Assembly (NCBI GenBank): GCA_963811675.1
Contig: CAWESH010000004.1
Location: 99,976-163,975, forward strand
From: an uncultured Actinomycetes bacterium
GTDB taxonomy: Bacteria; Actinomycetota; Thermoleophilia; Gaiellales; JAICJC01
Direction: 5' to 3'
Length of the DNA: 64,000 bases
Of the stretch, positions 6,173 to 57,058 are shown piece by piece (position 1 is the stretch's first letter; the number at the start of each line of letters is the position of its first letter). Under the pieces are notes generated by a model. The model made no database searches, was not told the DNA's origin, and saw only the letters and a list, made by a program, of their open reading frames with translations. The position numbers and the translations under genes were made by a program.

Positions 6173-6203
6173 GTGAATAACGGTGCCTGGCACCGTTATT
6201 CAT
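6173..6203. repeat. copy 1 of the dispersed palindrome GTGAATAACGGTGCCTGGCACCGTTATTCAT
   Basis: Near-perfect 15+1+15 inverted repeat. It is almost identical to the copies at 19547, 26512 and 57028. Confidence 0.9.
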
Positions 6204-6229
6204 GGGGGCGGCTGGGCCGCCCCCATGAA
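6199..6229 (-). terminator. GC-rich 14-bp hairpin 10 nt downstream of the pnp stop (probable terminator)
   Basis: TTCATGGGGGCGGC-TGG-GCCGCCCCCATGAA is a perfect inverted repeat. It directly abuts palindrome copy 1. Confidence 0.55.
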
Positions 6230-6239
6230 TGAGCGTCTG

Positions 6240-8721
6240 TTAGCGACGACCGCCGCGGTCGCGTCCTCGGTCACGGCCGCCACCGCCGCCACGGGGCCGC
6301 TCTTCACGCGGTTCCGGGGCGGGCGTGGCTGCTGCCACCTCGATCAACTGCTCCGGCGTGATCTCACTCTCGCCGTCCAGCTTGGCGACCAGCGTCAGGC
6401 CGATGCGGCCGCGGTCCTTGTCGACCTCGACCACCTGGACGCGCACCACGTCTCCGCGATCCATCACCTGGGCGGCCGACTGCAGCCGGTTTCCCTTGGG
6501 CAGGATGCGGCTGACGTGAAGCAGTCCGTCGACGCCCTTGCGCAGCTCGATGAAGGCGCCGAAGTCGGCGATCTTCACCACCTTGCCGGTGTACTCGTCC
6601 CCCACCTCGACGTCCTTGCACATCGCGTCGATGGTGTTGCGAGCCTCCTCGGCCAGCTCACCGTTGGCACCGTAGATGCGAATCGTGCCGTCTTCCTCGA
6701 TGTCGATCTGCACCTCGTAGTCGGCCTCGAGCCCGCGAATCGTCTCGCCGCCCTTGCCGATCACCATGCCGATGTAGTCCGGCGGTACCTTGGTCGAGAT
6801 GATCCGCGGCGCATGTGCCGCAACCTGCTCGCGAGGAGCCGACAGTGCCTCGCTCATCTTGCCGAGGATCACCAGCCGGGCCTCTCGGGCCTGGGTCAGC
6901 GCGTTTCGCAGGATCTCGGTGGTGACACCGGTGATCTTGATGTCCATCTGCAGCGCGGTGACGCCCTGCTCGGTGCCCGCGACCTTGAAGTCCATGTCAC
7001 CGAGGTGATCCTCGGCGCCCTGGATGTCGGTCAGGATGACGTAGTCGTCACCCTCCTTGATCAGGCCCATCGCGATACCCGCCACCGGCGCCTTGATCGG
7101 CACGCCGGCGTCCATCAGCGACAGCGTCGAACCGCACACCGAGGCCATCGACGACGAGCCGTTCGACTCGAGAATCTCCGACACCAGTCGCAGCGTGTAG
7201 GGGAAGTCCTCTTGGCTGGGGATGACCGGTACCAGGGCGCGCTCGGCGAGTGCTCCATGGCCGATGTCGCGGCGCTTGGGGCCGCGCATGAACCCGGTCT
7301 CCCCCACCGAGTACGGCGGGAAGTTGTAGTGGTGGATGTAGCGCTTGGTGTCGTCCAGCGACAGATCGTCGATGCGCTGCTCCTCCTTGCCCGTACCCAG
7401 CGTGCAGAGCGTCAGCGCCTGCGTCTGGCCGCGGGTGAAGAGCCCTGAGCCGTGCGTTCGGGGCATCACTCCGACTGAGGCATGGATCGCCCGCAGCTCC
7501 GTCTCGGAGCGCCCGTCGGGGCGACGCTTGTCGACCGCGATCTTGGTGCGGACAGTTTCCTTGTAGAGCTTGTCCACAGCCCCCGAAACCGCGGCCCGGG
7601 CGGCCGGGTCGAGCGTGGTGGCGCCGGAGGCGTCAGGCTCGGTGCGCGCCGGGAAGGGCAGGTCGATGCCGGCGACGATGTCGTCCAGAAGCGCGGCCCG
7701 CTTGGCCGACTTGAGCTCCTTGGAGTCCTGCTCGGCATCGGTCAGCGCCTTCACGGCCTCGCCGTACTGCGGCCTTCACAGCCGGATACACCGCCTGCTC
7801 CCTGGCCTCGACGACCAGCTCGGCAAATGCGAACTGGGCGCGCTGGCGCTGCAGCAGATCGGTCTCGGTCGAGCTGCCGCTGACTGCGGGCGTCTCGTCC
7901 TTCAGGATCGCGTCGGCAGTCGGCTGAAGCGCAGCCAGGCCGCCCCCGGTGATGGCGGCCTGAAGCGCTTGACCATGCGTCTGGCGAAGCGACTCGGTGA
8001 CCGCGCCGTCGGCCCACTTGGGCTGGCCGGCCTGGGACGCAAGGTCGATCTGTACCTGGCACAGCTTCTTGATCTCGACGTGGGCGATCTCGAGCGCGGT
8101 GATGAGATCCTCCTCACCGATCTCCTGCGCGCCGGCTTCGACCATGGTGATCGCCTCGGGCGTGCCGCACACGATCAGGTCGAGGCTCGACTGCTTCAGC
8201 TCAGGCAGGGTCGGGTTGACCACCAGCTCGCCTTCCAGGCGGCCGATGCGCACGGCTCCGACAGGGCCCAGGAAGGGCATCGGCGAGAGCATCAGCGCGG
8301 CCGAGGCGCCGTTGATGGCAAGCAGGTCGTGGCCGTTCACCATGTCCGTCGAGAACGTGGTGATGATCAGCTGCACCTCGTTCTTGTAGCCCTTCGGCCA
8401 CAGCGGCCGGATCGGCCGGTCGACCATGCGTGCATTCAGGATCGCCTTCTCGCCGGCGCGTCCCTCACGCTTGAAAAACCCGCCGGGAATCTTGCCGGCG
8501 GCATACATCTTCTCTTCGACGTCGACCGTCAGCGGGAAGAAATCGGCTCCCTCACGTCCCTCGGTGCGTCCCACCGCGGTGGCGAGTACCACCGTATCTC
8601 CCTGCTGTACGAGCACCGCGCCATGCGCCTGCTTGGCGACGGCCCCGGTCTCGAAGCTGATCTCCTTGTTGCCGATAGTGGCGGCAACACGGGTCGCTCC
8701 CGGTTCGACTGCAATACTCAT
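6240..8721 (-). CDS. pnp: polyribonucleotide nucleotidyltransferase (PNPase) (frame broken near 7770)
   Basis: ORF 7633..8721 is the first RNase PH domain. ORF 6240..7754 holds the second PH domain plus KH and S1 domains ([33 protein letters not shown]). The pieces are colinear and follow rpsO. Confidence 0.9.
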
Positions 8722-8735
8722 TCTCTGTCTCCTCC

Positions 8736-8756
8736 GGCCCCTCCATTTCGGGGGCC
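8736..8756 (-). promoter_or_regulatory. hairpin in the rpsO-pnp intergenic region (rpsO terminator / pnp leader structure)
   Basis: GGCCCC-TCCATTTCG-GGGGCC has a 6-bp GC stem. It lies between the rpsO stop (8780) and the pnp start (8721). Confidence 0.4.
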
Positions 8757-8779
8757 ATCCTCCGTGAATCGGCCGCGTC

Positions 8780-55891: not shown

Positions 55892-56329
55892 CCGTCACCG
55901 ATCGCCGCCCGCCATTTCGATTCTCGTTCGTCACCCGCGTTGGTTTCGACGAGACCGACGCCCAGGGAGTCGTCTACTACGGCCGCTACATGCCGTACTT
56001 CGACCGCGCCCGGGTCGAGTACCTGCGACACCTCGACCTGCTGGCAGACGGTCAGGGGCTGACCGAGTTCGTGATGCGCGCCCAGCACGTCGAGTACCAC
56101 GCCCCCGCCAAGTTCGACGATCAGCTGGAAGTGTTCGTGCGGGTCGCCAGGATCGGGCAGACCAGCGTGCGGTGGCAGTTCGAAGCCGTCGACGTGACCA
56201 CCGGCGCACACCTGGTGACCGCTGACCAGACGGTCGTCCAGATCGATCATGCCGCGCGTCGCTCTGTACCGGTGAGCGAGCATCTGCGCACGATCGTGAG
56301 CGGCGTTCGATACCGACGTGGAGCTGTGA
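55888..56329 (+). CDS. acyl-CoA thioesterase (4HBT/YbgC-like hotdog fold); C-terminus uncertain
   Basis: VGFDETDAQGVVYYGRYMPYFDRARVEYLR is the 4HBT signature. As given, the frame reads through into the GAF gene. A TGA at 56327 in the +1 frame (with the GAF GTG, as GTGA) would be a natural end if one base near 56298 is spurious. Confidence 0.6.
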
Positions 56330-56791
56330 ACAGCACCCAGCTGGGCGCGCTGGAGGCGATCGAGCGCGTCGTCAACCGGGAACCGGATGCTGCCGCGGTC
56401 GTGCGCGACACCGTCGAAGCTGCTGCACGACCGGCTCGACCACTACTCCTGGATCGGCATCTACTTCGTCGAGGGCAGCGACCTGGTGCTGGGTCCCTGG
56501 CTGGGGCCCGAGCCGACCGAGCACACCCGCATCCCGATCGGTGCCGGCATCTGCGGCGCGGCCGCGGCATCGGGCCAAACAGAGATCGTCGACGACGTCA
56601 ACGCCGACGATCGCTACATCGCCTGCTTTGTCTCGACTCGGGCCGAGATCGTGGTGCCCGTGATCGCCGCGGGGCGGGTGGTCGCCGAGATCGACGTCGA
56701 CTCCGACACGCCGGCCGCGTTCACCGACGACGACCGAACATTCCTGGAGCGGGTGGCGGTGCTGATCTCCCCGTTCTGCGAGAGGGCGTAA
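56326..56791 (+). CDS. GAF-domain protein (free methionine-R-sulfoxide reductase/YebR-like) (frame broken near 56414)
   Basis: YSWIGIYFVEG...LVLGPWLG...RIPIGAGICGAAA...IACFVSTRAEIVVPV parallels the YebR-type GAF. The N-terminal 29 codons lie in the preceding frame. Confidence 0.7.
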
Positions 56792-56875
56792 GTCACACTC
56801 CCTTCCCCCGTTCGAGGGACTGCGATCACCCGGTTTCAGGTAGACACTGAGATCGTGACCCTTGTTCGAAACATC

Positions 56876-57013
56876 ATGTCGGTGGGCGCGGTCGTGGCCG
56901 CGTTCTTCGTCTGGGGAGTGCCTGCCCTGCTCGTCGCCGCGGCTGTGTGCGTGGTGTTTGAGTTCTCGATGCGCGCGTTCGAATCGCACGATCGCAAGCG
57001 CACCACCAGCTAG
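56876..57013 (+). CDS. possible 45-aa single-TM peptide
   Basis: Translation MSVGAVVAAFFVWGVPALLVAAAVCVVFEFSMRAFESHDRKRTTS, read from the sequence and below the ORF-track cutoff. The third codon position is strongly G/C-biased. There is no homology evidence. Confidence 0.2.
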   Translation: MSVGAVVAAFFVWGVPALLVAAAVCVVFEFSMRAFESHDRKRTTS

Positions 57014-57027
57014 CCCCAACGCCCCCC

Positions 57028-57058
57028 GTGAATAACGGTGCCTGGCACCGTTATTCAG
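57028..57058. repeat. copy 4 of the dispersed palindrome (GTGAATAACGGTGCCTGGCACCGTTATTCAG)
   Basis: 15+1+15 inverted repeat with a mismatch at the outermost base. It lies between the small ORF (+) and the 3' end of yjbR (-). Confidence 0.9.

Follow-up and report, generated by a model that had tools for sequence, protein, structure and literature searches.

REPtrons combine a repetitive extragenic palindrome (REP) or REPIN repeat with its REP-associated tyrosine transposase (RAYT) (PMC3733652, PMC6006769), and abundant REPs have been tied only to RAYT groups 2 and 3 (Bertels et al. 2017). TAG stop codons are often provided by REPs of the GTAG kind, which occur preferentially at convergent and unidirectional gene junctions (PMC3733652). 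TIRtrons have a RAYT-like gene (TIRYT) with inverted repeats on either side, which in some cases are self-complementary and may belong to dispersed families (Di Nocera et al. 2013, PMC3733652), and the published terminal inverted repeat (TIR) families are described as "moderately abundant" (PMC3733652). Most described TIRYTs fall into TnpA-Y1 subclass 2.1, with members that carry a C-terminal helix-turn-helix (HTH), and Quentin et al. (2018) reported no REP-like repeats for this subclass (PMC6006769). Actinobacteria are unmentioned in the REPtron and TIRtron literature compared here. The subject of this study is a palindrome of 29 to 33 nt that occurs four times in a 64-kb stretch of contig CAWESH010000004.1 from an uncultured actinomycete; this whole stretch is called the window below. 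The palindrome is very probably a REP-type repeat whose spread and uniformity are due to a single-copy, vertically inherited Y1/HUH transposase of the RAYT/TIRYT kind, encoded outside the window. The REPtron is the general kind to which the system belongs, and the TIRtron/TIRYT arrangement is the more precise match among known systems. The initial annotation did not recognize the palindrome as a described family, which holds for the exact sequence, absent from the searchable literature, but not for the kind of system, as REPtrons and TIRtrons have been described (PMC3733652, PMC6006769). It is thus a new system of a known type in an undescribed host lineage, and its notable properties are the perfect symmetry of the repeat, its stop-codon arms, and an HTH-bearing enzyme.

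Palindrome copies in the window and in related genomes

Four exact matches to the core GGTGCCWGGCACC are present in the window, compared with 0.21 expected from shuffles, and matches to the whole pattern GTGAATAA-N-GGTGCCWGGCACC-N-TTATTCA lie at 6173, 19547, 26512, and 57028, with a shuffle expectation of 0. All four palindromes listed in the initial annotation are thereby confirmed. An nhmmer search of the window revealed no further intact copies, and a degenerate relic was recognized solely through comparison with the related locus L003. The copies, none of which is assigned to a strand, are as follows.

6173..6203, no strand: REP-like palindrome copy 1, C-linker type; flanked on one side by the pnp stop (6240, minus) and a separate GC hairpin and on the other by the mscS start region
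19547..19579, no strand: copy 2, AA/TT-linker type; the arms hold the Dtd stop TAA (19552-19554) and the stop of the tetratricopeptide repeat (TPR) gene (TTA on the plus strand, 19572-19574)
26512..26542, no strand: copy 3, C-linker type; borders on the metallophosphoesterase stop TAG (26509-26511), with the rpoZ stop 4 nt past the copy
57028..57058, no strand: copy 4, C-linker type; the arm holds the YjbR stop (TCA on the plus strand, 57055-57057); kept in the related locus L045
37343..37376, no strand: degenerate relic copy GAGTAATCTGGCGCCATGGCACCGAATTACTTCA; the orthologous copy in L003 is intact and of C-type

The earlier description of these elements as perfect palindromes of 31 to 33 bp stands for copies 2 and 3, which are symmetric over 33 and 31 nt, respectively. 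It has to be shortened for copies 1 and 4, in which the outermost pair is mismatched (G..T and G..G) and symmetry is perfect over 29 nt (6174-6202 and 57029-57057). Because the window has a G+C content of ~67%, the AT-rich AATAA/TTATT arms are conspicuous. Pfam matches identify the genes at the copies as the PNPase C terminus and MscS (tandem, both minus), Dtd and the TPR protein, a metallophosphoesterase and RpoZ, and a 52-aa open reading frame (ORF) and YjbR, in agreement with the neighbor names and with the placement of three copies between convergent pairs and one between pnp and mscS given previously. A search of the whole window against Rfam at gathering thresholds, which the initial annotation had proposed, returned one tRNA only and nothing at the palindrome sites, and a general repeat scan of the window at the chosen settings did not list the palindromes. 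Beside copy 1, a separate GC-rich perfect hairpin, TCATGGGGGCGGCTGGGCCGCCCCCATGA, lies at 6200-6229 of the window directly 3′ of pnp (minus strand); its last bases are common with the end of copy 1, such that two back-to-back stem-loops stand between pnp and mscS.

The copies in the window belong to a high-copy and nearly invariant dispersed family (family 1). The 27-nt core was found in more than 104 8-kb stretches from five metagenome-assembled genomes (MAGs) of the Microflora Danica series, all labeled "uncultured Actinomycetes". The closest relative among them, MFD03975.bin.2.246, has DNA 92-94% identical to the window, while other relatives are 88-90% identical to the window or ~80% identical to MFD03975.bin.2.246. 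The family-1 sample comprised 826 kb of fetched loci and the 64-kb window, which together hold 172 copies; an nhmmer search of the loci alone gave 172 matches, with 147 perfect to one of five consensus types and 12 one base off. One MAG contributed 87 copies within 455 kb of sampled DNA, and the density in the window is ~1 copy per 16 kb. The five types (C, TT, AA, AT, and T) differ solely in the 1- to 2-nt linker between TGAATAA and GGTGCC, and a change in the linker is always matched on the opposite arm. Half-arms hardly ever occur alone, 241 being counted for ~120 full C-type copies. A metagenome scan yielded one 1.3-kb contig only, and a scan with the Dtd protein one close relative only.

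Copies are also arranged in doublets, 22 of which were found with centers 44-48 bp apart. Nearly all combine a C-type with a TT-type unit, a few having a degenerate partner or one of another type. The spacer within the doublet is semiconserved and oriented and is found in both orientations, indicating that a bipartite unit exists as well; since each unit is symmetric, an inverted orientation of the units themselves cannot be defined. With respect to the upstream gene, the central base had no preferred orientation (49 A and 35 T). With its high copy number in several related genomes, its position at gene 3′ ends, and its doublets with a semiconserved spacer, the family bears out the earlier suggestion of a dispersed repeat resembling REPs or bacterial interspersed mosaic elements (BIMEs). 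Within related MAGs, a repeat of ~55 nt, CCTTGCCACAGGCCCAACGGCCTGCGCCTCAGGGCGCCAGTCG..., with a small hairpin of its own (GCGCC-TCAG-GGCGC), adjoins ~11 palindrome copies (L103:5080-5140; also L002, L056, L058, L064, L087, L089, and L094), which yields a BIME-like mosaic; the window does not contain this repeat. In addition, perfect complementarity extends at least 5 nt past TGAATAA into the variable flanks in 17 of 142 copies (for example, L071:1993, L033:3279, and L010:5384; CTCGGGGTGAATAA...TTATTCACCCCGAG), far above a chance expectation that we estimate at ~1-3 copies. Insertion into older hairpins or template switching is a possible origin of these extensions.

The copies lie almost only at gene 3′ ends, and mostly at convergent junctions. 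The coding potential of the flanks was scored with a simple codon log-odds model, and junctions were counted where both sides were callable. Family-1 copies were found at 30 convergent, 15 tandem, and 4 divergent junctions, compared with 10, 30, and 9 expected from the same loci (chi-square P = 3e-11). The bias toward 3′ ends noted in the initial annotation is therefore upheld when copies are tabulated against stop codons and gene orientation, with convergent junctions enriched approximately threefold and divergent ones depleted. On either strand, the TGAATAA arms contain stop codons for two of the three frames. Indeed, 81 of the 144 genes that run into a family-1 copy (56%) end at the TGA or TAA within the arm, as do Dtd, the TPR gene, and YjbR in the window, and for a further 11 of the 144 the stop abuts the element, in the one frame that lacks an arm stop; the phosphoesterase stop abuts copy 3. 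In a sister family (family 2, see next section), convergent genes flank 23 of 35 copies, and the arm contains the end of 50 of 57 approaching genes (88%). For annotators, this means that in both families many genes owe their end to the repeat. The arm variants TGAATCA and TGCATAA weaken the case for selection acting on the TAA codon in particular. This genome leaves very little space between gene ends: from crude gene calls, convergent pairs in the window are separated by 9, −10, −11, and 12 nt, with overlaps at 14895-14904 and 40646-40656.

The palindrome-flanked transposase and its variant repeats

The initial annotation had pointed to a RAYT gene as the partner to be sought, and a search for genes bracketed by two palindrome copies located a RAYT-type Y1 transposase in a related genome. 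In MFD03975.bin.2.246, a 230-aa ORF at L069:3509-4201 has palindromes at 3348-3374 and 3408-3434, both upstream, and at 4196-4222, over its own stop codon. The transposase is palindrome-flanked in five genomes (L069/L105, L255, L252, L253, and L254), and L106 and L108 carry their own variant. The L069 ORF matches Pfam Y1_Tnp with 37.1 bits (cutoff 23), and the residues H60 and H62 of the HUH motif and Y119, the tyrosine of RY[IV]xLNP, are invariant among homologues. A C-terminal HTH spans residues 195-229 (Sigma70_r4, 25.0 bits compared with a cutoff of 24.1; HTH_23 and HTH_28 below their own Pfam cutoffs). Its motif HGYTQAEIA..TVSR is conserved among homologues, one of which (P0036) carries PF08299.

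A profile of the family, searched against the PDB, found Escherichia coli TnpAREP (4ER8) as its best match (E 1.6e-5), with IS200-type structures at E 0.25 or worse; phmmer with the single protein matched no Y1 structure in the PDB. The AlphaFold model of a 73%-identical orthologue (predicted local distance difference test score 90.8) places helices at residues 186-229. With that model, Foldseek likewise ranked 4ER8 best (E 2.9e-7, template-modeling score 0.75 on the target), while matches 2-6 were the IS200, IS608, and ISDra2 transposases at E 1.7e-4 or worse. By profile and predicted fold, the transposase is closer to TnpAREP than to the TnpA proteins of IS200/IS605.

Only one transposase locus was found in MFD03975.bin.2.246, although further copies are possible in a MAG; homologue clusters occupy one to three contigs each, and several members are named RayT by the Joint Genome Institute (JGI). 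Orthologues at 94, 73, and 66% identity are present in three further genomes (L252, L253, and L255), each palindrome-flanked, and in all four genomes the gene occupies one and the same site (leuD/DUF8230), with leuD on one side and a DUF8230 gene on the other. No TnpB-type accessory gene adjoins the transposase at the orthologue loci examined. The occupation of one site at 66-94% protein identity indicates vertical descent, and a gene that is single-copy, syntenic, and repeat-flanked behaves as a RAYT and not as an insertion sequence.

Diverged lineages of the transposase carry diverged palindromes in which both arms have changed together. Homologues at 45-47% identity, from other actinomycete MAGs (L106, L107, and L108, mutually syntenic), are flanked by GTGAATAAACGGGGTCWGACCCCGTTTATTCAC, which retains the outer arm of family 1 but has a replaced inner stem with complementarity preserved. 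A homologue at 61% identity is flanked by GTGACTAAACGGTGCC...GTTTAGTCAC, and homologues at 60% by GATGAATCATTGGTGCC... and GTGAATCAATGGTGCC.... In an alignment of twelve variants, several of which were chosen because they are palindromic, 99.5% of cells are paired, and 10 of the 16 stem pairs have changed on both sides and none on one side only. Shuffled and slid controls all fell far below this pairing. The sister family (GTGAATAAACGGGGTCWGACCCCGTTTATTCAC, family 2) is itself dispersed, occurring in 35 stretches of seven MAGs in a complete scan, and its center reads GTCWGAC, with no CCWGG. It follows that CCWGG is not a conserved feature, and the idea in the initial annotation of a Dcm-type role for this central motif is weakened.

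Further hairpins in the family-2 genomes share the inner core GGGGTCWGACCCC, with outer arms that are quite different, which suggests several repeat families built on one core. Their positions are as follows.

L214:158, 208, 3504; L216:3705, 3755; L221:7822; L224:2512: hairpins with the GGGGTCWGACCCC core

L254 and L257, which come from the same sample (ERZ25039594), carry different RAYT-like genes that share 61% and 60% identity with the query, each accompanied by its own palindrome variant (GTGACTAAAC... and GATGAATCATT...). One genome may therefore hold several enzyme-repeat pairs, though the two contigs possibly belong to different genomes.

Comparison with REPtrons, TIRtrons, and insertion sequences

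The system shares with the REPtrons of E. coli (TnpAREP), Pseudomonas, and Stenotrophomonas a short, high-copy extragenic palindrome and a single-copy, vertically inherited Y1 transposase that is flanked by its own repeat and covaries with it. Further likenesses are the convergent and unidirectional junctions, the doublets, the repeat ends that supply stop codons, and 4ER8 as the best structural match. In contrast to the bulged E. coli REP, each unit here is a perfect palindrome free of orientation, and the enzyme carries an extra HTH. The resemblance to TIRtrons is closer. The enzyme is RAYT-like, with HUH and Tyr motifs, but longer than classical RAYTs, and has the C-terminal HTH indicated by the below-cutoff HTH_23 and HTH_28 matches and by the modeled helices. 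Its flanking repeats are inverted or self-complementary rather than of the GTAG kind, and in TIRtrons, too, the flanking repeat may belong to a dispersed family arranged in dimers. The published TIR motif GGGGWSAS is matched by GGGGTCAG, which is the inner core of family 2. However, the family-1 core GGTGCCAG agrees with this motif at 6 of 8 positions, the density in the window contrasts with the moderate abundance of published TIRs, and the host belongs to an uncultured actinomycete lineage. The likeness to TIRYTs and to subclass 2.1 is drawn from published descriptions rather than from those authors' own subclass profiles.

The enzyme has the Y1/HUH catalytic core in common with IS200/IS605 elements, and presumably also the recognition of hairpins in single-stranded DNA. 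In contrast to those elements, the transposase here is single-copy and syntenic across species, has no adjacent TnpB, and is far outnumbered by its repeats. The mycobacterial TRIT motif and the paired DNA-uptake sequences of Neisseria are likewise conserved inverted repeats, dispersed over gene 3′ ends where convergent genes meet, and neither is known to be associated with a transposase. The family described here differs from them in that half-sites are not found alone and no U-tract follows the stem.

With these comparisons, palindromic repeats linked to a transposase become known from an uncultured lineage of soil actinomycetes as well. They also concern the HTH-bearing Y1 branch, whose associated repeats were absent in one survey and only moderately abundant in another. 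In addition, three or more related enzyme-palindrome pairs with compensated stems form a natural series for studying how a hairpin is read without a GTAG guide. The findings are of interest mainly to researchers on REPs and RAYTs and to annotators of these genomes.

Site histories and competing explanations

To compare sites across relatives, ten 20-kb loci that cover the sites of copies 2 and 3 were fetched with the exact RpoZ protein, a sample free of ascertainment bias. In the eight genomes that are ~80% identical to the window, no palindrome was found anywhere in the 20 kb, and rpoZ and the phosphoesterase gene end 3 nt apart. At the dtd site, which is empty in L242, the Dtd and TPR genes of that locus overlap (CTCAGCGGGTAG); in the window the element sits in this overlap and both genes are re-ended, Dtd reading ...AAR-GE* in the window compared with ...ATR*. 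The linker at the dtd site also varies among filled copies, from AA/TT in the window to TT/AA in L127, AA/AT in L251, and TT/A- in L243. The rpoZ site holds a C-type copy in the window and an AA-type copy with different junctions in L251 (89.6% identical), and is empty in L243 (92.3%). There, L243:10225-10245 reads CAGATCTAGATC, which equals window sequence 26505-26555 with 40 nt taken out and CT at both boundaries (CT...CT). For the TnpAREP enzymes of E. coli and S. maltophilia, cleavage at the dinucleotide CT has been reported (PMC8266576). The CT-bounded loss is a single case, with 2 nt of microhomology in an error-prone assembly, and needs checking because other indels in L243 resemble assembly errors. 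At CAGATCTAGATC, a 10-nt palindrome, the two convergent genes share stop codons (CTAG). The filled, empty, and linker-swapped states indicate that copies are gained, lost, and overwritten with their symmetry kept, and the relic at 37343-37376 that they also decay.

By analogy with the TnpAREP enzymes of E. coli and Stenotrophomonas and with those of IS200/IS605 (PMC3333891, PMC3479197, PMC8266576), the transposase would bind a hairpin extruded by one DNA strand and would cut and rejoin the DNA beside it, such that copies spread or are replaced. New copies would survive only where they are harmless, namely at the abutting or overlapping ends of convergent genes in a compact genome, because the element re-terminates both reading frames. 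With TGA and TAA available in two frames of either strand, its arms would allow it to sit even within an overlapping junction. Once transcribed, its hairpin of 14-16 bp may end the mRNA or stabilize its 3′ end. Several observations weigh against a transposase-driven repeat of the RAYT/TIRYT kind. The window holds no transposase gene. The NCBIfam model REP_Tyr_transpos (NF047646) scores the L069 ORF at 67.1 bits, under its equivalog cutoff of 80. The palindrome ends in (G)TGAATAA ... TTATTCA(C) on both sides, so that it is fully symmetric and has no tagged end, the GT[AG]G tag of REPs and the CGTC tag being absent. The loci fetched by exact pattern favor intact copies, and conservation across genomes therefore overstates maintenance. 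Among these pattern-fetched loci, empty-site comparisons are not clean and no clean insertion with recognizable target-site features was found.

It is unlikely that the palindromes are primarily bidirectional intrinsic terminators, or stabilizers of mRNA 3′ ends, kept by selection and not by a transposase. In such a layout, UUAUUCA would follow the stem CGGUGC-CWG-GCACCG in one direction, and the AAUAA tract would play this part in the other. The position of copies at gene 3′ ends and the threefold enrichment of convergent junctions would be expected of terminators, as would AT-rich arms in a 67% G+C genome. The transcribed element is, moreover, predicted to fold into a stable hairpin of 14-16 bp with a 3-nt loop (z-scores −2.8 to −6.9), and effects on termination and mRNA stability have been reported for REPs of other bacteria (PMC3733652, PMC2817692). 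However, the inner GC core is followed only by UUAUUCA, and pairing of the whole palindrome leaves no free U-tract. In accord with the initial annotation, no T-run follows the full stem, and a terminator and promoter scan of the window flagged none of the palindromes. A stem and a U-tract would also suffice for termination, with no need of an identical sequence of 29-31 nt at >150 unrelated loci. Orthologous junctions in relatives ~80% identical to the window are free of copies, and the tie of the family to a Y1 transposase gene, whose lineages the palindrome variants follow, would be left unexplained. A role in termination or at RNA 3′ ends is plausible as a secondary function.

The other two explanations are weaker still. 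The ends of IS200/IS605 elements are subterminal hairpins, and the palindromes might be selfish miniature elements, akin to miniature inverted-repeat transposable elements (MITEs) or palindrome-associated transposable elements (PATEs), that derive from the ends of an active IS200/IS605 element whose transposase is neither domesticated nor host-linked. The Pfam Y1_Tnp match and the NCBIfam score under the RAYT cutoff are compatible with this origin, which is nevertheless improbable given the single transposase locus in MFD03975.bin.2.246, the lack of an adjacent TnpB-type gene, and profile and fold searches that place TnpAREP above IS200, IS608, and ISDra2. Vertical descent at the leuD/DUF8230 site, with the likewise syntenic L106, L107, and L108, also speaks against it. 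Least probable by far are duplex DNA sites read by a host protein, such as a Dcm-type methylase or restriction enzyme at CCWGG, an uptake machinery, or a nucleoid protein or regulator. Perfect twofold symmetry and the CCWGG center of family 1 would suit such a site. The sister family beside a homologous transposase, however, has the center GTCWGAC, which rules out CCWGG and Dcm as the defining feature, and the near absence of lone half-arms rules out an uptake signal. The distance from outer to inner block differs by 1-2 bp, with the change always matched on both arms, and promoter-side (divergent) regions are avoided. Integron attC sites and dif/Xer sites were also considered but do not fit in gene orientation and sequence.

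A more elaborate form of the transposase-linked repeat can be offered only tentatively, as we consider it rather doubtful. The symmetric TGAATAA palindrome could be an adapted "double stop-codon cassette" that fits overlapping convergent gene ends and is kept by the host, via a domesticated HTH-bearing Y1 enzyme, as a transcript-end or insulator element that works in both directions and needs no U-tract, in an actinomycete lineage with compact, high-GC genomes.

Elsewhere in the window, the PNPase gene next to copy 1 is divided between two minus-strand ORFs (6240-7754 and 7633-8721) that overlap and differ in frame, from either a frameshift or an assembly indel. Look-ups of the exact YjbR, DUF58, and S15 proteins of the window gave no match, for which such an error may be the reason. 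ARAGORN reports a 91-nt tRNA-Thr at 27276-27366 (minus) within the gmk coding region that Rfam does not report and that is probably a false positive, whereas the tRNA-Arg at 45501-45574 is backed by both ARAGORN and Rfam.

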